A DNA stretch of 30,576 nucleotides, from contig JBBSVW010000078.1 in assembly GCA_038046605.1 (NCBI GenBank), positions 1-30,576 on the forward strand, written 5' to 3'. The notes beneath the pieces are model-generated. The model made no database searches, was not told the origin of the DNA, and worked only from the letters and a program-made list of their open reading frames with translations. Each line of letters starts with the position of its first letter. Within the stretch, counting starts at the first letter, position 1. The position numbers and the translations under genes were made by a program. This DNA comes from Candidatus Micrarchaeota archaeon. Its GTDB lineage: Archaea > Micrarchaeota > Micrarchaeia > Norongarragalinales > SBBD01. Of this stretch, positions 3,525-17,829 are shown one piece after another.

Positions 3525-6500
3525 ATGAATAAGCTCTTCGTTCTTGCATTCCTTCTTGTTGCCCTCTCCTCCAATATTTCCGCAGCAGCGTTTAATGCAT
3601 TCACCGCAACTCCGGGGGTATCAACTGCCAATGCGTCCACTTTTTACAACCTCACCATAAACGTCTCTTCACTTACCAATATGTCTAATATCTCCATCGC
3701 TTTCCCCACAGGGTTTTTCATCGCCGGCGCTTCCGTCACTTCCGGTTCCGTTAACTTCTCAAATGGAACCACCTTGATCTCCGGCCAGAATCTCACCTAT
3801 AATCTGAACCAGTCTTCAGTAATACTTGCCGCACAGAACTTTTCCATCGGAATATCGGGCGTATTTAATCCTTCTGGGGCAGTTTTCCAAACTTTGAATG
3901 CCGTCACCTACAACAGCACGAACACTTCCACCTTCACCACCATGGATTCCGGCACCGGAAATACGACGATAACGGCTGGCGCGATTGAAAAAATGAACAT
4001 GACTAACTTATTTCCCGTTACCACTTCTGGCAACACTTATACTATAATAGTTACAGGTACGGATCGTTATGGAAATCTCAACAACACCGGAGGCTTCAAC
4101 GTTTCCAGCAGCAACACTTCCGTCTCCGCCAACACCACCGGCGGACCCACTTCCTTCACCTTCAATGCTGTGCAAGCCGGCAACACCACCCTCACATTCC
4201 AGGCTTATGGCAACTTCTCCGTCACCAACAACACCAACTCCTCCGTGATCGCCGCTGCAATACAAAGAATCGAGCTTTCCAATTTATTCCCCGTCACCAC
4301 TTCCGGCAGCACTTACTCCATTACAGTAACCGGCAGGGACTTGAACAGCAACGCCAATAATTCATTAGGTTTCAATGTCAGCAGCAGCAACACCTCCATC
4401 TCAGCAAACACAACAGCAGCTTCACCCTTCACTTTCAATGCAGTCCTCTCTGGCAATACCACATTAACATTCCAGGCTTACGGCAACTTCTCAGCTACAA
4501 ACAACACCAACTCCTCCGTACTAGTAGGCGCCATCACCAACCTCAGGCTTTCACCGCTATTCCCTGCTACTGCGTCCGGCAATACCTACGTAATTACCGT
4601 CACCGGCGTGGACATCAACGGCAACACCAACAACACCGGAGGCTACAACGTCAGCATAAGCAATTCCACGGTTTCCACGCTTGCTTCAAACACTTCCACC
4701 GCGTTCACGTTCAATTCGCTCGTAATTGGAAATACCAGCCTTACCTTCCTTTCTTTGGCAAATGTATCCGCTTCAAACAACACAAATGCTTCCGTGACCG
4801 CTGGCAATCTAATTAAAATCGAGCTCTCTCCACTCTTTCCCGTCACCACTTCAGGCAGCGCCTACACCATCACGGTCACTGGCAGAGACGTGAACGGCAA
4901 TTTGAACAACACCGGCGGCTTCAACGTTTCAAGCAGCAACACATCGGTTTCAATAAATACCACTAGCGGAACTTCATTCACTTTCAACGCCCTCTTGGCA
5001 GGGAACACCACATTAACATTCCAGGCTTACGGCAACTTCTCAGCTACAAACAACACCAACTCCTCCGTACTAGTAGGCGCCATCACCAACCTCAGGCTTT
5101 CACCGCTATTCCCTGCTACTGCGTCCGGCAATACCTACGTAATTACCGTCACCGGCGTGGACATCAACGGCAACACCAACAACACCGGAGGCTACAACGT
5201 CAGCATAAGCAATTCCACGGTTTCCACGCTTGCTTCAAACACTTCCACCGCGTTCACGTTCAATTCGCTCGTAATTGGAAATACCAGCCTTACCTTCCTT
5301 TCTTTGGCAAATGTATCCGCTTCAAACAACACAAATGCTTCCGTGACCGCAGGTCAACCAGTGAGAGCTGAAATAACCCCTCTTTTCCCAGTAAACACTT
5401 CGGGCGGATTGTTCACATTCACAATTACTGGTAGAGATATAAACGGGAATACGAACAACACTGGTGGCTTCATTTTCAGTGTTGGAAATAGCTCCATATT
5501 GATTCTGTCCACGAATACATCAACTTCCGCAATCTACAACGCCTCAGCCGCAGGCAACTCCTCGTTTAGCATCACTTCAGTTGCCAACTCTTCAGTGACG
5601 AATTCGACTAACGCTTCCGTAATAGCAGGCACTGTGACTAAGATATTGCTTACCCCCCAAGCACCTGCATTAACTGTCGGCGCCAGCCAGCAATTCACGG
5701 CTGTTGCATTGGATGTTAATGGGAACACCAACACTACCGTCACCATCACTTGGGCAATAGTGAACCTGACTGCTAACGCTTCAATAAATTCAAGCGGTTT
5801 CCTGACAAATAATTCTAACGCTGGAATCATTACCGTTAATGCCTCATATGTAACAATTGTCAATGTGACAAATGCAACATATAGTGCTGCTGCAACCCCA
5901 ACTCCAACGCCAGTTTCTTCTGGTGGTGGAGGAACTGGAGGAAATCCTGGTGCTGGCTCAACTCCAACTCCAACGCCTACTGCTACTCCAACACCTTCGG
6001 CTGAACCACTCCCTACTGCGCCCAAAACCATCATTGTAGATGAGCACACGGCAGTAACCGGAACATTCACACCAACCAGCGGAAAAATTGAGATCGTATT
6101 CAACGGCGGAAAGAACGGCTTTATAGGAGAATTGGAGCAAAAAATGCCCTTCGATTATGCCGACTATGTGGCGGGCAAGATCAAGATTTCACCCAAGCCA
6201 AAATCAGTCAAGAAGGGAAGCATAATTGCCATTTGGGATATCAATCTAAAGGCCAACCAGGACTTTAAGGCAACATTTGATGTTTCAAAGCCAATTGCGC
6301 CATCGCTCTTAAGCCAAATCGCCGCTCCAAAGACCACGCTAGCAAAACCCTCCTTGAAGCCAACAACCACTCCATCGCCTACGCCGACATCCGCGCCCAC
6401 ATATGTGCCAATTGCTCCAAAAGCAGGTGGAAACGATTACACCGGCTACATCCTGCTATTCATTGTGCTGCTTTTGGTTGCGGGATACCTCTGGAACGCA

Positions 6501-6530
6501 AACCAGGAGCAAAAGCGCCACAAGCTTTAG
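3525..6530 (+). CDS. Large surface glycoprotein/adhesin with tandem Ig-like repeats and C-terminal TM anchor
   Basis: Signal peptide; about seven ~91-aa beta-rich repeats (LFPxTxSG...TGxDxNGN); dense N-x-S/T sequons; Pro/Thr linkers; C-terminal TM helix with basic tail. Confidence 0.85.
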   Translation: MNKLFVLAFLLVALSSNISAAAFNAFTATPGVSTANASTFYNLTINVSSLTNMSNISIAFPTGFFIAGASVTSGSVNFSNGTTLISGQNLTYNLNQSSVILAAQNFSIGISGVFNPSGAVFQTLNAVTYNSTNTSTFTTMDSGTGNTTITAGAIEKMNMTNLFPVTTSGNTYTIIVTGTDRYGNLNNTGGFNVSSSNTSVSANTTGGPTSFTFNAVQAGNTTLTFQAYGNFSVTNNTNSSVIAAAIQRIELSNLFPVTTSGSTYSITVTGRDLNSNANNSLGFNVSSSNTSISANTTAASPFTFNAVLSGNTTLTFQAYGNFSATNNTNSSVLVGAITNLRLSPLFPATASGNTYVITVTGVDINGNTNNTGGYNVSISNSTVSTLASNTSTAFTFNSLVIGNTSLTFLSLANVSASNNTNASVTAGNLIKIELSPLFPVTTSGSAYTITVTGRDVNGNLNNTGGFNVSSSNTSVSINTTSGTSFTFNALLAGNTTLTFQAYGNFSATNNTNSSVLVGAITNLRLSPLFPATASGNTYVITVTGVDINGNTNNTGGYNVSISNSTVSTLASNTSTAFTFNSLVIGNTSLTFLSLANVSASNNTNASVTAGQPVRAEITPLFPVNTSGGLFTFTITGRDINGNTNNTGGFIFSVGNSSILILSTNTSTSAIYNASAAGNSSFSITSVANSSVTNSTNASVIAGTVTKILLTPQAPALTVGASQQFTAVALDVNGNTNTTVTITWAIVNLTANASINSSGFLTNNSNAGIITVNASYVTIVNVTNATYSAAATPTPTPVSSGGGGTGGNPGAGSTPTPTPTATPTPSAEPLPTAPKTIIVDEHTAVTGTFTPTSGKIEIVFNGGKNGFIGELEQKMPFDYADYVAGKIKISPKPKSVKKGSIIAIWDINLKANQDFKATFDVSKPIAPSLLSQIAAPKTTLAKPSLKPTTTPSPTPTSAPTYVPIAPKAGGNDYTGYILLFIVLLLVAGYLWNANQEQKRHKL
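4458..5350 (+). repeat. Exact 344-bp intragenic direct repeat (4458-4801 = 5007-5350)
   Basis: Identical by direct reading; offset 549 nt (183 codons, two repeat units). Confidence 0.9.
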
Positions 6531-6749: not shown

Positions 6750-8591
6750 ATGAATATTATAAAAAATCTTATTTTGTCCATTGCTTTGGTGGCACTGCTT
6801 TCCGTTAATGCATATGCTGATGATAATTCTGGCCTTAGGGTCCGCAGCCCAATTGATGGCGGCGGAGCTTGCACGTTGGATTACAATCCCGTTTGCGGCG
6901 CTGACGGGATAACTTATAGCAACCAATGCACGGCAAGGTCAGCTGGCGCTAAAATAGCATACAAGGGCGAGTGCGGAACTCTTCTAACCGAAGCGCAGAA
7001 ATGCCGCGCACTTGAAAGTGCATCCGAAAAGGCCGCATGCCTTCGGAAAATTGGCGCAAATGACGATGATTCCACTCCATTTAGGGACTGCAAAAAACTT
7101 GACGATGATGAAAGGGAAAAATGCTATGCGGGAATAAAGGAAAACATACGTTCGACCCTTCCAGCAATCAAGCTAAGGGAATGCGCAAATGCCGATAACG
7201 AGAAAGATAGGCTCGAATGCAGGAAAAAAGCCGCTATGCTGGGCGGGGGCAAGATAACGGAAAAATGCGACGATTATTCCGATCCGGAGGATAAGCGTGT
7301 TTGCATAATTGCCCTTCGCGAGGATGTCGAAGAGCGCGTGGAAGTGAAGGCAACTGCTTTTGCCTGCGCAAAGAAATTTGAAAATGATGAGGCTGGCAAA
7401 ATTGCCTGCCTTGCAAAACTAAACGTGGAACTTGCCGACATGCGAATGGATTGCCAGGTGTATTCGGATAGCCCCGAATTGCAGGAACGATGCCGTGTAT
7501 GCGATGCCATGACTGAAAACCTTCCCGCAAGGGCGTCTTGTGTTTCCCGCATGAAGGAGTGCCGGGAGGATTTTGATGAGGCTGGAAACAAAACAGATAA
7601 TAACGGAACAATCGATTTGCGCGCGTGCCTAATGGATCTTAAGCAGGATGATGAGCGCGAAAATCGCTGCAAGAATGTCGAAACGCCCCTTCTGAAGGCG
7701 CAATGCCTAGGCAAGGAATACGGCCTTGGCAATCTCAAGGCTTGCGACGATGAAAAAGGTTTTGACAAGTCCAGGTGCCAGGGGGAATTGAAGGAAAAAG
7801 TCAAGGGTTACATCCAATCAAACTTCCGAAGGATTTTGAATGCCATAGAAAATTTGGAATCAAATGGGTATTTGACTCAGGATGAGCTAACTGCCTTTAA
7901 AACCTATGTTTCCCAAAAGCAAACCGAGTTCGATGCAGCCTCTACCCCCTCCGAAAAGCGCGCAATCATCAAGGAGGTTATTGCAAAATGGGATGAATTC
8001 CGCGAGAACAAGGTTTTCAAGTTCCACCTGAAAAATATTCTTAAGCGCATTGAAGTTGTTAGGAAGCACATTTCAAAATTAAAGGATTTGAGTGCGAAAT
8101 TAAATGAAAGCGGTACGGACACCGCAAAGCTTGATTCCGCAATCGCAAAGCTGGAAATTGAACTAGGTAAGGTTAAGGATTCGTCTACATTCCGCGAAGC
8201 CAAATGGCGCCTAAACAGCATCACCCTTTGGCTTGCGCATATCAAGCGCGTTCTTGCCTTTATACGAGAAGGTAGGCCAGTTGACATTCCGGATCCAACC
8301 ATTGGGCCTTTCCCAACTCCGGAGCCATCCGCAACTTCTACTCCAAGCGCAACCGCAACGCCTAGCGCAACTCCTACCGCAACAGTTTCGCCCTCGCCAT
8401 CAGTGGAGGCTTCCCCCACAACGACTCCATCCCCAAGCGCATCGGTTGAGGCTAGCGCTTCTCCATCGCCAACAGTTTTGGCATCCCCTTCAGCCGAGCC
8501 ATCTCCCAGCCCCTCTCCAGAGGCATCGCCCTCCCCAACAGCAACTCCCGCGCCAACCCCAAGCCCTTCAGTTCCTGCAAATTCAAGCTAA
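6750..8591 (+). CDS. Secreted protein with Kazal-type inhibitor domain, Cys-paired helical repeats, coiled coil and Pro/Ser/Thr tail
   Basis: Signal peptide; Kazal motif CTLDYNPVCGADGITYSNQC...YKGEC; about ten C-x(10-13)-C units; PSPS/PTAT low-complexity C-terminus. Confidence 0.85.
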   Translation: MNIIKNLILSIALVALLSVNAYADDNSGLRVRSPIDGGGACTLDYNPVCGADGITYSNQCTARSAGAKIAYKGECGTLLTEAQKCRALESASEKAACLRKIGANDDDSTPFRDCKKLDDDEREKCYAGIKENIRSTLPAIKLRECANADNEKDRLECRKKAAMLGGGKITEKCDDYSDPEDKRVCIIALREDVEERVEVKATAFACAKKFENDEAGKIACLAKLNVELADMRMDCQVYSDSPELQERCRVCDAMTENLPARASCVSRMKECREDFDEAGNKTDNNGTIDLRACLMDLKQDDERENRCKNVETPLLKAQCLGKEYGLGNLKACDDEKGFDKSRCQGELKEKVKGYIQSNFRRILNAIENLESNGYLTQDELTAFKTYVSQKQTEFDAASTPSEKRAIIKEVIAKWDEFRENKVFKFHLKNILKRIEVVRKHISKLKDLSAKLNESGTDTAKLDSAIAKLEIELGKVKDSSTFREAKWRLNSITLWLAHIKRVLAFIREGRPVDIPDPTIGPFPTPEPSATSTPSATATPSATPTATVSPSPSVEASPTTTPSPSASVEASASPSPTVLASPSAEPSPSPSPEASPSPTATPAPTPSPSVPANSS

Positions 8592-8892: not shown

Positions 8893-8996
8893 TGCCCCCT
8901 GCCGATTCAGTTGAATCGGGGGGCAAAGCCCACAAAAATTAATTTTCCCTTGCAATAGCAATTTATTGCAAAGGCAAAACCCACAAAAAAATTAAT
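8893..8996. repeat. Two hairpins each followed by the same GGCAAA(G/A)CCCACAAAAA(AA)TTAAT motif
   Basis: Imperfect direct repeats at 8922-8943 and 8973-8996, each overlapping the 3' arm of a different stem-loop. Confidence 0.6.
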
Positions 8997-9207
8997 GCCC
9001 CGCGGCAAAAGGTGCAAATGCAAAAGCGACATCTACCTTCTTCCGGTATCCATATCCGAAATAAACACACAGCTTGACTGTTCTTGTTCATTTTCGGGTT
9101 GGACGTTGGCAGGGGTTTTTCCTCCGGAGGGGAAGCTATTCATGCCCTCAGGGATGAGGCATTCCAGCTTTCGTTGCGCTTGCAAAGCATGAACTTTTCC
9201 GCGGGGT
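8997..9207 (+). ncRNA. Candidate structured ncRNA with a terminal bulge-helix-loop motif
   Basis: The ends pair (GCCCCGCGG/CCGCGGGGT, AAAAG/CTTTT, GTGC/GCAT, TGCAA/TTGCA). Three internal hairpins, one with a GGGA tetraloop; AT-rich flanks. Confidence 0.55.
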
Positions 9208-9415
9208 GAATTCTTATTTTATTAATTTTGGCTGATGATTTTTAGATGAAACCGCACTCAGGAAGGCTTCATTGTTGATTGCCCCTAATTTCCTTTCGTT
9301 CCTTCAAACAACAATAATTAAGCAAGGTCCAAAACAACCTTTTTAAACGTTCGATTGCTGAATATTACCTCTATTAAACTGATTTATTGTCAGAATCAAA
9401 CAGGTAGAACTACTT

Positions 9416-11602
9416 ATGGCACGAAAGGAAAACATTGCGGCGGAAGCGCAAAAACTGATGGGCAATAGGGCAAATATCAGGAACATGGGGATTGTTGCCC
9501 ATGTCGACCATGGAAAAACCACATTAAGTGACTCATTAGTTGCACTAGCCGGCCTCATTTCGCAGGAATTGGCAGGGGAGCAGCGCATCCTTGATTACGA
9601 TGAGCAAGAGCAGGCACGTGGGATTACCATCAAGGCGGCAAATATTTCAATTCCTTATGCGTACGAAGGCCAGTCCTACCTAATTAATCTCATCGATACG
9701 CCCGGCCACGTGGACTTTGGAGGCCACGTTACAAGGGCAATGCGCGCAGTTGACGGCGCCGTTGTTGTCATCGATTGCGTTGAAGGCATCATGCCCCAAA
9801 CCGAAACCGTGCTCCGGCAGGCGCTCAAGGAAAAAGTCAAGCCAGTCCTGTTCATCAATAAAATCGACCGCCTGATCAATGAGCTCAAGCTGGATCAGCT
9901 CCAGATGCAGCAGCGCTTCCTCAAAATCATTACCGGCGTAAACAAGCTTATCACCACCTTTGGCCCCGATGAATTCAAAATCCCCTGGCAAATTGATGTC
10001 AATAAGGGAAATGTCGCATTCGGCACGGCCTTTAGCAAATGGGCAATTTCCGGCAAGCAAATGAAAAAATCCGGATTGACCTTCAAGGATATCTATCAGG
10101 CATGCGTGGATGGAAAGCATGCGGATTTGCAAAAGAAAATACCACTTGGGCCTGTCATGATGGATATGATCATTAATCACCTTCCAAACCCGCTTACCGC
10201 GCAAAAATACAGGGTGCCGGTCATATGGCATGGCGATTTGGAATCAGATCTTGGGAAAAGCATGCTTAATGTTGATCCTGCAGGCAAGGCGATTTTCATG
10301 GTCACGGCAATTCAAAATGACCCCCACGCCGGCGAAGTGGCAGTTGGGAGGCTATATTCCGGAACTTTAAAGAAAGGATCCGACCTTTACCTTGCATCCC
10401 AATTCAAGAAGGAAAAATTGCAAAGTGTAGCCGTATACATGGGCCCCGATCGCGTCACAATCGATGAGGTGCCTGCAGGCAACATTGTTGCGCTGGTTGG
10501 TTTGAAGGAGGTCTATTCAGGGGAAACCGTTTCAGAAGAGCCAATTACGCCCTTTGAGCAAATCAAGCACCACTCGGTTCCCGTTGTCACAAAGAGCATT
10601 GAGGCGAAAAACCCACGGGATCTTGTAAAATTAGTGGAGGCCATGAAAAAGCTTGCAAAGGAGGATCCCACCATGAAGCTTGAGATCAACCAGGAAACTG
10701 GCGAGCATCTGATTTCCGGCATGGGCGAACTTCATCTTGAGATCATCGAGTATAAATTGAAAAACGAACAGGGTGTTGATATTGTCACATCGCCTCCAAT
10801 TGTGGTCTATCACGAGTCAGTATTTGGTGAATCCCCCGAATTGGAGGGAAAATCCCCAAACAAGCACAACAAGTTCAAAATACTTGTGAGCCCAGTTGAG
10901 CCAAGTGTCATTGCCGCAATAAACGATGGTACAATTGACGAGCACAAGAAAGGAAAGGAGCTAATTGAGCTTTTGATTAAGGCGGGCCTTCCCCGTGATG
11001 AGGCAAAATCAGTAATGACAATCCACAACGGCAATTTCTTCCTTGACATGACCAAAGGAGTGCAATATTTGGTGGATATCAAAGAAGCCCTTATCACCGC
11101 ATTCGAAGAGGCGGTGGAACAAGGGCCGCTTGCAAAGGAAAAGTGCATCGGCGTCAAGGTAATCCTAACGGATGCAACGATCCACGTCGATCCGGCGCAC
11201 AGGGGGCCGGCACAACTGTTCCCGGCAATCAAGCGCCCTATTTATGCGGGCATGTTGATGGCCAAGTGCGCACTCCTCGAACCCAAGCAAAAGCTAGTTG
11301 TGAATTCGCCAGCTGATTATTTGGGGAACATTACCATGAAAGTGCAGGGCAGGCGTGGGCAAATTGAGAACATCGAGCAGGAAGGCGAAGTTGTGAATGT
11401 CACTGCCAAGGTGCCGGTTGCCGAGATGTTTGGCTTTGCAAATGAGATCCGCGGCGCAACCCAAGGGAGGGCCGCCTGGTACTATGAATACGCCGGATAT
11501 GAGAGGCTCAACCCCGATCTGCAGGCAAGGATACAGGCGCAAATCCGGAAGCGCAAAGGAGAGCCGGAGAACGCTCCGACTGCAAAGGATTTCCTCGAAT
11601 GA
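9416..11602 (+). CDS. fusA: Archaeal translation elongation factor EF-2
   Basis: AHVDHGKTT, RGITI, DTPGH, NKID, GMGELHL motifs and the HRG diphthamide loop; 728 aa. Confidence 0.98.
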   Translation: MARKENIAAEAQKLMGNRANIRNMGIVAHVDHGKTTLSDSLVALAGLISQELAGEQRILDYDEQEQARGITIKAANISIPYAYEGQSYLINLIDTPGHVDFGGHVTRAMRAVDGAVVVIDCVEGIMPQTETVLRQALKEKVKPVLFINKIDRLINELKLDQLQMQQRFLKIITGVNKLITTFGPDEFKIPWQIDVNKGNVAFGTAFSKWAISGKQMKKSGLTFKDIYQACVDGKHADLQKKIPLGPVMMDMIINHLPNPLTAQKYRVPVIWHGDLESDLGKSMLNVDPAGKAIFMVTAIQNDPHAGEVAVGRLYSGTLKKGSDLYLASQFKKEKLQSVAVYMGPDRVTIDEVPAGNIVALVGLKEVYSGETVSEEPITPFEQIKHHSVPVVTKSIEAKNPRDLVKLVEAMKKLAKEDPTMKLEINQETGEHLISGMGELHLEIIEYKLKNEQGVDIVTSPPIVVYHESVFGESPELEGKSPNKHNKFKILVSPVEPSVIAAINDGTIDEHKKGKELIELLIKAGLPRDEAKSVMTIHNGNFFLDMTKGVQYLVDIKEALITAFEEAVEQGPLAKEKCIGVKVILTDATIHVDPAHRGPAQLFPAIKRPIYAGMLMAKCALLEPKQKLVVNSPADYLGNITMKVQGRRGQIENIEQEGEVVNVTAKVPVAEMFGFANEIRGATQGRAAWYYEYAGYERLNPDLQARIQAQIRKRKGEPENAPTAKDFLE

Positions 11603-17585: not shown

Positions 17586-17749
17586 ATAGCAGCACCTTTT
17601 AGTAAGAATAAAGCGCAATTGTTATTCGGGTTTCACTTTATAATGTATTCGATGGATAATAATAACTTCATTTGGCACTATATTTTGTTGTTTTTGGGAA
17701 TAATGGCCAATAATTATTTGTCCCATATTTTCAAAGCCAATAATCATTT

Positions 17750-17823
17750 GGGCCTGTAGTATAACCTGGACAGAACGGAAGCTTGCGGAGCTTTAGATCT
17801 GGGTTCAAATCCCGGCAGGCCCG
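17750..17823 (+). tRNA. tRNA-Arg (anticodon GCG), intronless, CCA not encoded
   Basis: Acceptor stem GGGCCTG/CAGGCCC; anticodon arm GAAGC-TTGCGGA-GCTTT; T arm CTGGG-TTCAAAT-CCCGG. Confidence 0.95.
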
Positions 17824-17829
17824 TTGACA

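Follow-up and report, generated by a model that had tools for sequence, protein, structure and literature searches.

The window, a 30,576-nt stretch of DNA from a Micrarchaeota genome, carries at positions 8997 to 9207 of its plus strand a conserved structured RNA, from which the cellular tRNA-splicing enzymes apparently cut out and close a 175-nt ring. The locus is probably a dedicated gene for a circular non-coding RNA that is made by EndA and RtcB and whose fold uses the ligation joint.

Closing motif and predicted cut sites

The ends of the RNA are held together by a relaxed bulge-helix-loop (BHL), evident both on reading the plus strand and on folding it. An outer helix (8997-9011 with 9194-9207, C9006 being left unpaired) is followed by a central helix of 4 bp, GUGC 9012-15 with GCAU 9187-90, and by an inner helix, UGCAA 9019-23 with UUGCA 9180-84. 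The outer helix, the 4-bp helix, a GAA bulge and an AAA facing AA had been described in an earlier note on this DNA, and all are present. The same note's 3-nt bulge on each strand holds for one strand: the 3' strand has a true 3-nt bulge, GAA 9191-93, and AAA 9016-18 opposite AA 9185-86 forms a 3x2 internal loop, not a pure bulge. Features of the closing region are as follows.

8997-9011, plus strand: 5' strand of the outer (leader-trailer) helix, pairing with 9194-9207; covaries in all homologues (alignment pairs 1-283 to 15-269); predicted to be discarded
9012-9015, plus strand: GUGC, 5' strand of the central helix, pairing with 9187-9190; predicted to be discarded
9016-9018, plus strand: AAA, 5' loop side; predicted cut after 9017, A9018 being the first base of the ring
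9018-9192, plus strand: predicted excised and ligated circular RNA, 175 nt; joint present in an RNA-run contig of a relative
9185-9192, plus strand: predicted 3' end of the ring, AAGCAUGA; with A9018-U9019 it would form the joint loop GCAUGA-AU (the hyphen marks the joint)
9187-9190, plus strand: GCAU, 3' strand of the central helix, from fold and consensus; predicted to be retained in the ring
9191-9193, plus strand: GAA, 3' bulge; predicted cut after 9192
9194-9207, plus strand: 3' strand of the outer helix, from fold and consensus; predicted to be discarded

Homologues from three other lineages, each folded singly, close with the same geometry, and the outer, central and inner helices are all paired in a 10-sequence consensus. 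The relaxed form, comprising the 3' bulge, the 4-bp central helix and the 5' loop, is kept in 10 of 10 aligned sequences, its 5' side being 3x3 in genus g3 and 3x2 here. The flanking helices on both sides (outer 14-15 bp, inner 5 bp) covary, the outer one strongly. The central helix, GUGU/GCAC in the sister genus, is also paired in all 10 sequences (alignment pairs 16-265 to 19-262). Among 13 solid homologues, base 3 of the 5' three-base element is always A (13/13) and bases 1-2 vary (AA in 8, AG in 3, AU in 1, UA in 1); in the 3' bulge GA is invariant and the third base, which would be discarded, is A in 10, G in 2 and U in 1. The bulge bases retained in the predicted ring are thus invariant and those discarded are variable.

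Conserved fold and strand

Folding of the plus strand gives a minimum free energy of -84.2 kcal/mol (z = -4.58), which none of 200 shuffles matches; the minus strand gives -75.6 kcal/mol (z = -3.78). Covariation in related genomes, named earlier as a check, is extensive: 44 of 66 consensus pairs are compensatory across 10 sequences from three lineages, and 23 of 67 within the genus. The bit score is 222.9 on one strand versus 32.5 on the other, and pair 16-265 is GU in 8 of 10 sequences; the G-U pairs and this asymmetry together indicate the plus strand. The interior of the RNA comprises the following elements.

9019-9030, plus strand: 5' strands of P1 (UGCAA 9019-23) and P2 (GCGAC 9026-30), pairing with 9180-84 and 9173-77; both covary (alignment pairs 24-257 to 36-246)
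9043-9109, plus strand: arm 1, a long irregular hairpin leading to a conserved CAG-CUUR..-CUG hairpin and then GUU; alignment pairs 53-142 to 82-102, many of them compensatory
9121-9130, plus strand: palindromic hairpin CCU-CCGG-AGG, from homologue comparison; its 4-base loop is always self-complementary
9131-9172, plus strand: arm 3, with lower stem 9131-36/9167-72 and a large internal loop; alignment pairs 169-243 to 188-225, with compensatory changes
9138-9145, plus strand: conserved block AUUCAUGC, 5' side of the internal loop in arm 3; complementary to the ligation joint
CCUC 9146-49 / GAGG 9156-59, plus strand: upper stem and loop of arm 3, from the genus and 10-sequence consensuses
9151-9165, plus strand: predicted second tertiary helix, arm-3 loop GGGAU 9151-55 with AUUCC 9161-65 of the 3' side of the internal loop

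The interior proposed in the earlier note is borne out in part. The inner helix UGCAA/UUGCA pairs in the fold and covaries in the consensus, and the long hairpin has covariation support at about 9043-9109. A helix 9038-46/9124-32 finds no support, 9121-9130 being a conserved palindromic hairpin of its own; the loop of that hairpin is CCGG in 10 of the 13 homologues, CGCG in 2 (G003 and G016) and GGCC in 1 (G026). The hairpin proposed at 9132-71 survives as the covarying arm 9131-9172 without its GGGA cap, which occurs only in this genome, the other 6 members of the genus having a 7-nt loop in its place. The plus-strand assignment had likewise been drawn from G-U pairs and a GNRA loop; the G-U pairs and the strand scores uphold it.

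The open reading frame 8995-9192 was not accepted as coding, since the rings of genus members vary in length (172-176 nt) by amounts that are not multiples of 3 and the substitutions compensate within pairs. Between families, conservation of single-stranded sequence is confined to the tertiary-contact blocks.

Distribution of homologues

The 13 solid homologues are spread over three families within a single Micrarchaeota order; each occurs once in its genome and is colinear. The hosts are tiny groundwater archaea. All 6 other genomes of the same genus are positive by BLAST. Model R1 finds the RNA in 11 of 68 genomes of the order and model R2 adds G035 and G026; in 53 of the 68 it was not found. 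Two further genomes, G023 and G065, give matches of 17-21 bits in which the 3' half and the block are retained but a closing helix cannot be drawn convincingly; they were counted as weak and not as members. Model R2 found the RNA in none of 40 genomes of other orders, and model R1 with strict filters found nothing outside the order among 151 genomes of the class. Not found in 53 of 68 genomes of the order or in 40 of 40 of other orders, the RNA is therefore not a universal component.

Pattern scanning of genome contigs returned 9 stretches, 6 of them already known Micrarchaeota copies; the remaining 3, in bacterial MAGs, are chance-like matches in unrelated, apparently coding sequence and were dropped. 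A scan of metagenome contigs yielded 4 stretches. One is the window's own contig and one nearly duplicates the G005 copy (189.4 bits); the other 2 are unmatched by model R2 and were dropped. A weak BLAST match in G027, 21 nt only, was ignored. Locus L020 scores 37-41 bits in the default cmsearch, against which the scattered 3-7 bit matches of a filters-off cmsearch were disregarded.

The ligation joint and the proposed pseudoknotted core

The predicted joint GCAUGA-AU and the conserved block AUUCAUGC (9138-45) are complementary, and judging from the sequence comparisons the joint seems to take part in the fold of the ring. In the sister genus both joint and block are altered, in step with each other; 12 of 14 sequences have 8 or more contiguous pairs linking the joint to the homologous block. 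The 13 tertiary pairs are 94.4% paired, versus 12-42% when slid. Pair 24-177 is UA in 8 sequences and CG in 1, with G-C also in G010 by eye; the linear alternative, pair 177-269, is unpaired in 8 of 10. Circular RNAalifold by itself selects UCAUGC/GCAUGA. Wobble variants aside, the covariation of the joint helix comes from what is essentially a single split between lineages, genus g3 against all others. An internal A-G mismatch interrupts the helix in G005, and within the genus of the window the AUG half of the block is predicted to form local, invariant pairs with CAU as well. The joint itself would appear to be under selection, and the pairing of joint and block would account for the conservation of the motif's sequence. 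Forming an 8-bp helix out of a 9-nt hairpin loop makes high steric demands.

The second tertiary helix within arm 3 has 91% of cells paired and 2 compensatory pairs. Its loop is GGAAU in relatives, and in other families the corresponding partners, found by eye, are GAACC/GGUUC, AAACC/GGUUU and CGAAAC/GUUUCG. In family f1 the two tertiary-looking stems of arm 3 that are separated by 1 nt cannot both form.

Splicing enzymes and RNA evidence for the ring

The genome encodes both an RtcB ligase and an endonuclease of the type capable of cutting relaxed motifs. The EndA, of 388 aa, matches the ARMAN-2 epsilon2 structure 4FZ2 over residues 14-388 (E = 3.5e-126), and RtcB is encoded without stops (569 bits). 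According to the accessible text of PMC3239211 and PMC12397907, epsilon2 cuts BHB as well as BHL substrates.

RNA evidence comes from metatranscriptome run X10, where one 204-nt contig with a depth of 205, from a relative about 93% similar, closes on itself. Its order is 9138-9193, then the relative's 9019-9040, then 9041-9166, with 30 nt repeated at the ends; it is thus an assembled ring of about 174 nt in which 9193 is joined to 9019. This joint has the same sequence as the predicted 9192 to 9018 joint, lies at symmetric positions of the two three-base elements and omits exactly the leader-trailer helix. The ring is seen as one assembled contig of one run, carrying no strand or end information, and this relative is represented by an RNA run with no DNA run of the same organism. 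Contigs of DNA runs X2, X5 and X8 do not contain the ring joint, and the X2 contig (upstream) and the X5 contig (downstream) run colinearly past the ring boundary into the flank. The proposal that cuts after 9017 and 9192 give a circle of about 175 nt thus draws support from the ring contig and from the EndA and RtcB genes. The check for a 9192 to 9018 junction, which had been framed in terms of RNA-seq reads, is answered by a joint in the assembled contig of the 93% relative rather than by raw reads. By the same rule the predicted rings measure 172-176 nt in g1 and g3 (family f1) and 203-263 nt in the other two families.

It is very unlikely that the RNA is an ordinary linear structured small RNA whose BHL serves for protein binding or architecture, with the back-joined contig stemming from a tandem or permuted gene copy in the relative or from an assembly artefact. 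The contig is single and from a single run, and RNA libraries can contain DNA; against a copy or an artefact, the joint is symmetric in both three-base elements, the leader-trailer helix is omitted precisely, and 13 of 13 genomic copies are colinear and single-copy. The sequence of the motif is unusually conserved, which a shape-reading endonuclease would not need, although the pairing of joint and block would explain this too. As for a protein-binding motif, the GAA bulge was not accepted as a k-turn, since it lacks flanking tandem G-A pairs, and no k-turn signature of that kind is seen by eye.

Comparison with known RNA families

No Rfam family matches between 8800 and 9450 even at E <= 10, nor at four homologue loci, as regards the Rfam check proposed in the earlier note. 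That the ring matches no tRNA, SRP RNA or RNase P also holds, and those models match elsewhere in the genome: SRP RNA lies at C9:57013-57281 (E = 1.2e-15), away from the locus, and RNase P RNA at C105:576-861 (RF00373, 88.6 bits, above the cut-off). A search with RF02357 gave no match here and none in control genomes either. The 5S rRNA (RF00001) is at C94:2305-2420 (69.4 bits), with no match at the locus. The only tRNA found by ARAGORN and the Rfam tRNA model is the tRNA-Arg at 17749-17824, with none at 8997-9207, and the ligated flanks would total 36 nt (21 + 15), leaving no cloverleaf exons. Guide sRNAs are marked by the C/D consensus RUGAUGA/CUGA, by ACA boxes and by the k-turn; within 8997-9207 no Rfam snoRNA or sRNA match rises above noise, and no C/D or ACA boxes are seen by eye.

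These results make it extremely unlikely that a divergent or permuted known RNA (SRP, RNase P, 5S rRNA, a tRNA with a giant intron, or a C/D or H/ACA guide) is concealed here, even though the accessible text of PMC4731332 describes such a case from Thermoproteus, in which a known RNA was hidden behind a BHB-closed, circularised gene.

Proposed mechanism and relation to known systems

Under the favoured reading, 8997-9207 would be the precursor of a dedicated non-coding RNA of a Micrarchaeota (DPANN) clade, transcribed from the plus strand. Its leader and trailer would form a long helix presenting the relaxed BHL, the epsilon2 tRNA-splicing endonuclease, an enzyme of broad specificity, would cut after base 2 of each three-base element (9017 and 9192), and RtcB would join the ends into the 175-nt ring 9018-9192, presumably the abundant form. 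Ligation would create GCAUGA-AU in a 9-nt loop, which would pair with the block AUUCAUGC of the arm-3 internal loop; the opposite side of that internal loop would pair with the arm's own hairpin loop, and the resulting double-pseudoknotted core would be complete only after ring closure. The hairpin with the always self-complementary loop may link two rings.

It is more tentatively suggested, as a possibility that falls somewhat short of even, that the RNA is obligately circular, the joint being a functional element whose 8-9 nt, created by ring closure, dock into the conserved internal loop and complete the double-pseudoknotted core, and the self-complementary hairpin loop joining rings into dimers or bigger RNA or RNP particles. 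If so, it would be a new, DPANN clade-specific class of structured circular non-coding RNA, possibly catalytic or a scaffold, the folding of the ring being dependent on the tRNA-splicing machinery. As to role, a protein-binding (RNP) or self-assembling scaffold RNA is guessed rather than a base-pairing guide, because no conserved single-stranded sequence is shared between families beyond the tertiary contacts.

As far as the accessible text of Plagens et al. (2015, PMC4731332) goes, the circular permuted SRP RNA of Thermoproteus tenax is comparable in being neither tRNA nor rRNA, in having termini that form a splicing-endonuclease site, and in being cut and ligated to a stable ring with the ligation site in a functionally important part of the fold. 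That RNA belongs to a known universal family and has a permuted gene, whereas the present gene is colinear and family-less, with the SRP RNA elsewhere. Pre-tRNA introns of Micrarchaeota (ARMAN) with BHB or BHL motifs, as described in the accessible text of Fujishima et al. (2011, PMC3239211) and of PMC12397907, share the lineage, the enzyme type, the strict or relaxed motif and an excised piece for which circularisation is expected. Here, in contrast, there are no tRNA exons, the flanks supply a helper helix only, and the conserved product is the excised piece and not the ligated flanks. Archaeal pre-16S rRNA and pre-23S rRNA in circular form and the C/D-box RNA of the tRNA-Trp intron (accessible text of PMC12558985 and PMC7714728) likewise carry a BHB in a leader-trailer stem, are cleaved by EndA and ligated to a ring, and have the function in the excised piece. 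Unlike these pre-rRNA intermediates and C/D-box guides, as that text presents them, the present RNA is a stand-alone RNA of about 175-260 nt with a predicted pseudoknotted core and no guide boxes.

The known archaeal rings made by EndA and RtcB are rRNA intermediates, tRNA introns (some with C/D guides) and one permuted SRP RNA. The literature search, in which subscription-only papers and supplements were outside reach, found no report of a stand-alone circular structured non-coding RNA from Micrarchaeota or other DPANN. The present case offers a probable dedicated gene of which the ring is the only conserved product, RNA evidence for that ring from an environmental transcriptome, and sequence evidence for a ligation joint within the fold. 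OLE, ROOL, GOLLD and raiA are large, structured, self-assembling bacterial non-coding RNAs of unknown function. They resemble the present RNA as orphan, abundant RNAs with conserved tertiary contacts and a self-complementary loop possibly serving homo-oligomers, and differ in being linear, bacterial or phage-borne and much larger; Rfam scans of the locus and four homologues gave no sequence or Rfam relationship to them. A 211-nt transcript and an already crystallised enzyme offer a compact testable system, opening the questions of why cells circularise an RNA and of what role orphan structured RNAs play in ultra-small symbiotic archaea.

Flanking signals and neighbouring genes

Two putative flanking signals were read by eye.

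8961-8996, plus strand: possible archaeal promoter, with A/T-rich ATTTATT at 8961-8967
9211-9229, plus strand: T-rich tract TTCTTATTTTATTAATTTT, a likely archaeal oligo-T termination signal

Near-repeats of the form CCCACAAAAA(AA)TTAAT occur at 8929-8943 and 8980-8996, the second following ATTTATT, and T-runs follow the outer helix in most members of the genus. Co-transcription with the upstream open reading frame would be equally possible as a promoter of its own at 8961-8996, because that frame stops about 13-15 nt before the RNA in three genus members (G003, G002 and G004). Downstream, the aEF-2 gene begins at 9416 on the same strand, about 210 nt away, and is placed likewise in 5 other f1 genomes (in all, 4 of 7 genus members and both g3 genomes). 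Families f7 and f9 and 3 of 7 genus members have other neighbours.

With these neighbours the ring could be a by-product or transient: a BHB-type intron removed from the upstream small-protein mRNA's 3' UTR or from a long aEF-2 leader, regulating that mRNA, or a ring later reopened to a permuted linear RNA, as circular pre-rRNAs are. The lack of promoter room in the three genomes with the close upstream frame and the recurrence of aEF-2 fit such an origin, and contigs cannot reveal whether some molecules are opened. Against it, the interior is conserved and not the cut site alone, with 44 of 66 pairs compensatory; the joint itself appears selected, the neighbours change, and the sole RNA contig, at a depth of 205, is a closed ring without flanks. 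A by-product or transient is accordingly held to be unlikely. The probability of a cis-acting aEF-2 leader (a riboswitch or r-protein-type operator) is close to negligible: the distance and shared strand in six f1 genomes would suit it, and against it stand the terminator-like T-rich tract in between, the absence of aEF-2 as neighbour in 3 of 7 genus members, f7 or f9, and the RNA being seen as an excised ring.

The genome's 16S gene is broken by a contig end and its leader is absent. One copy of the 5' motif GTGCA[AGT]ATGC was rejected as a cut site, lying within an open reading frame in a 16S insert. In the genome as a whole this motif occurs 21 times, versus roughly 9 expected by the analysts' own estimate.

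Fold and strand of the element

The closing geometry of the RNA element (8997-9207, + strand) is as drawn in the earlier note: the outer helix 8997-9011/9194-9207, the 4-bp helix GUGC 9012-15/GCAU 9187-90, the AAA 9016-18 opposite AA 9185-86, the GAA 9191-93 bulge and the inner helix UGCAA 9019-23/UUGCA 9180-84 are all present in the sequence and reproduced by RNAfold. The + strand folds at -84.2 kcal/mol (z = -4.58; 0 of 200 shuffles equally stable, RNAfold) and the reverse strand less well, at -75.6 kcal/mol (z = -3.78). Covariation, proposed as a check, is evident in related genomes, with compensatory changes in 23 of the 67 pairs of the genus-level consensus fold and in 44 of the 66 consensus pairs of a 10-sequence model-guided alignment (A6). 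The interior is only partly as earlier drawn. Covariation bears out the long and last arms but not the helix 9038-46/9124-32, and the following features are supported:

~9043-9109, + strand, long arm (arm 1)
9121-9130, + strand, separate palindromic hairpin
9131-9172, + strand, last arm (arm 3)

The GGGA cap assigned to the last hairpin is found in the window genome but is absent from the six other genus members, all of which have a 7-nt loop.

G-U pairs, strand score asymmetry, T-runs after the trailer and ring-length differences point to a non-coding + strand RNA. The pair between alignment columns 16 and 265, for example, is GU in 8/10 sequences, and the covariance score is 222.9 bits on the correct strand vs 32.5 bits on the complement. 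The trailer is followed by T-runs in the window and most genus members, and ring lengths in the genus (172-176 nt) differ by non-multiples of three.

A ring joint in RNA

Seventeen sequencing runs hold part of the stretch, one of them an RNA library (X10), which was compared along with three DNA runs (X2, X5, X8); the DNA-holding runs are mostly groundwater metagenomes. X10 yields one 204-nt contig (depth 205, ~93% like the window), arranged as follows:

letters 2-57, 9138-9193
next 21 letters, a relative's version of 9019-9040
letters 79-204, 9041-9166

The joint, listed as a return from 9193 to 9041 with 21 letters between, is effectively 9193 joined to 9019. With AAA at 9016-18 and GAA at 9191-93, the joints 9193->9019, 9192->9018 and 9191->9017 give identical sequence; the contig, from one RNA run and a ~93% relative, thus equals the predicted 9192->9018 junction, with 9191->9017 equally compatible. 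The contig ends share a repeat of ~30 nt, as a k = 31 assembly of a closed molecule of ~174 nt would produce, and the leader-trailer helix is wholly absent. No joint occurs in the contigs of the three DNA runs: those of X2 and X5 are colinear across a ring boundary into the flank, and that of X8 parts from the window's sequence at 8999, immediately upstream of the RNA. The evidence for the ring is a single unstranded contig of a single run, from a relative (known here from RNA alone) and not from the window organism. A linear sRNA with an artefactual contig would account for so narrow a record, but is decidedly improbable given the match to the predicted joint.

The joint as a probable part of the fold

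Across the joint, the family's two best-conserved blocks complement each other. The joint GCAUGA-AU (9187-9192 plus 9018-9019, ligation site hyphenated) is the reverse complement of AUUCAUGC (9138-9145), a block in the 5' strand of the internal loop of arm 3. With scripted cuts placed behind base 2 of each 3-base element and G-U pairs allowed, 12 of 14 sequences form a run of at least 8 contiguous pairs between the homologous block and a segment that spans the joint; G005, interrupted by one internal A-G mismatch, and the weak member G023 do not. Both partners are changed in genus g3 (block (C)GUUCGUGC, joint GCACGA-AC(G)). In alignment A6, pairing holds for 94.4% across the 13 proposed tertiary pairs and drops to 12-42% once the partner is shifted by 1-3 columns; in four of them both sides have changed. 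At pair 181-265, 8 sequences have AU and 2 have GC. Pair 24-177, which can form solely across the joint, is UA in 8 sequences and CG in one; in the last, G010, the alignment is shifted by one column and the pair is G-C by eye. The counterpart pair in a linear reading, 177-269, is unpaired in 8/10. A rough alignment of 13 sequences, folded with circular RNAalifold, likewise yields the UCAUGC/GCAUGA helix in its consensus.

Independently in line with this, the bulge bases that the ring retains are invariant (third base of the 5' element A in 13/13; first two bases of the 3' bulge GA in 13/13) and the discarded ones vary (5' AA, AG, AU or UA; 3' A, G or U). A cut behind base 2 of each 3-base element, the canonical position, would leave such a pattern. 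A motif recognised by shape would be conserved in sequence here because the ring-kept bases pair with the block. From these comparisons the ligation joint appears to be part of the RNA's fold, a new observation.

The arm-3 hairpin loop is in turn complementary to the 3' side of the internal loop of the same arm, with these partners by eye:

genus g1, GGAAU/AUUCC
genus g3, GAAC(U/A)/(A/U)GUUC
family f9, GAACC/GGUUC
genome G026, AAACC/GGUUU
genome G016, CGAAAC/GUUUCG

Counted for the part in f1, the window's family, this helix is paired in 91% of cells, with 2 compensatory pairs. A spacing of 6-8 nt in f7 and f9 is right for a classical H-type pseudoknot. The strands lie only 1 nt apart in f1, so that the two stems may form alternately there. 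The 4-base loop of the 9121-9130 hairpin is always self-complementary (CCGG 10, CGCG 2, GGCC 1), the CGCG loops of G003 and G016 being independent events, which hints at possible pairing between two RNA copies. Since conservation between families is confined to the tertiary-contact blocks, a tentative role for the ring is that of a scaffold that binds proteins or self-assembles, in preference to a base-pairing guide.

Family membership and distribution

The element is a genuine and new RNA family. No Rfam 15 model matches the locus at gathering scores or at E <= 10, and none matches the loci of four homologues in other genera and families; ARAGORN finds no tRNA at the element. The genome's SRP RNA (C9:57013-57281; 69.4 bits, E = 1.2e-15, below the family cut-off) and RNase P RNA (C105:576-861; 88.6 bits, above cut-off) lie elsewhere, so the earlier view that it matches no tRNA, SRP helix 8 or RNase P consensus stands; the 5S rRNA is at C94:2305-2420. 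A known RNA hidden at the locus is very improbable. Full-text literature searches, which cover articles without their supplements, turned up no account of an RNA of this kind from Micrarchaeota or other DPANN.

By BLAST the element is in 6/6 other genomes of the genus, and 8 of 41 relatives have matches, one being a 21-nt chance match. A covariance model (R1) built from 7 genus copies was positive in 11/68 genomes of the order. A second model (R2) was run against the 57 genomes that R1 left unmatched and against G039; it contributes G035 and G026 as well as two weak matches (G023 and G065, 17-21 bits). There are 13 solid members, with one match per genome:

family f1, genus g1 7/7 and genus g3 2/2
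family f7, 2/6 genomes
family f9, 2/12 genomes

It was not found in f1 genera g2 and g4 (one genome each), nor by R1 and then R2 in f11 (26 genomes) and f2 (7 genomes). R2 has no match in 40 genomes of other orders, and R1 with strict filters has none outside the order among 151 genomes of the class. Public records with the same element are Candidatus Micrarchaeota/Micrarchaeia MAGs.

The divergent copies in G023 and G065 (f9, genus g17; loci L034 1500-1740 and L038 1090-1305) retain ...GCAAAGCAUGAAC plus the block CAUUUAUGCC; the leader-trailer helix and 5' cut site were sought in them and could not be drawn. These copies may be processed differently, or be decaying.

Gene neighbourhood

Upstream lie genes for a 613-aa secreted Cys-rich Kazal-domain protein and an 85-aa small secreted protein, a pair that adjoins the RNA in 7/7 genus members; downstream is aEF-2, which lies next to the RNA in 4/7 genus members and 2/2 g3 genomes. 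Families f7 and f9 have other neighbours, and comparison across the genus, g3, f7 and f9 yielded no conserved partner gene. That the element is a leader of aEF-2, as its position in six genomes might suggest, is barely credible when other families place it beside other genes. The small ORF stops ~13-15 nt ahead of the leader in three genus members, so the precursor may derive from a longer transcript. The ring could then be a by-product or intermediate of mRNA processing, which is unlikely in view of the changing neighbours and the joint-block pairing.

The Kazal-domain protein (6750-8591, +) carries a Kazal-type protease-inhibitor domain at its N-terminus (PF00050, E = 1.1e-8; PF07648), which is unusual for an archaeon, and a Pro/Thr/Ser-rich tail. 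At 3525-6530 (+) is a 1001-aa secreted protein with ~95-aa repeats rich in N-x-S/T sites, a Big_3_3 match, a Pro/Thr linker and a C-terminal membrane anchor, an architecture resembling that of a cell-surface or S-layer-type glycoprotein. Just upstream of the RNA, two near-identical A/T-rich boxes (8929-8943 and 8980-8996, CCCACAAAAA(AA)TTAAT), 51 nt apart, sit in a 135-nt spacer absent from other genus members and may be duplicated promoter elements.

Processing

The genome has one splicing endonuclease (EndA), of 388 aa with two PF01974 matches, which matches the ARMAN-2 epsilon2 crystal structure 4FZ2 over residues 14-388 (E = 3.5e-126). In vitro, enzymes of this type cleave strict BHB as well as relaxed BHL substrates (PMC3239211, PMC12397907). 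An uninterrupted RtcB gene is present (569 bits). Probably, then, the leader-trailer helix would present a relaxed BHL, epsilon2 EndA would cut after 9017 and after 9192, and RtcB would close a 175-nt ring; GCAU, once released from the leader's GUGC, and the joint bases would both pair with the 9138-45 block. Processing of this kind is known from Thermoproteus, whose SRP RNA is circular (PMC4731332), and from BHB-excised circular introns and pre-rRNAs (PMC12558985); the element is a member of none of these RNA families. The processing would be of a known kind, here acting on a new RNA family.

Other observations in the genome

The 16S rRNA gene (G000:C1:13-2098, L043) is truncated by the contig end. 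It has an insert of ~1.3 kb after ...CTTAAAGGAA; ORFs with LAGLIDADG-like motifs lie inside, which makes this a probable rRNA intron encoding a homing endonuclease. ARAGORN finds only 13 tRNA genes, 7 with introns called at 74-233 nt, of which the 233-nt call (C45:21065-21392) is implausible; most tRNA genes are evidently too disrupted for standard detection. The 10-mer GTGCA[AGT]ATGC, the 5' half of the closing motif, has 21 copies in the genome, ~2x a rough chance estimate, several with G-rich runs just before; these might mark other endonuclease sites, or nothing.
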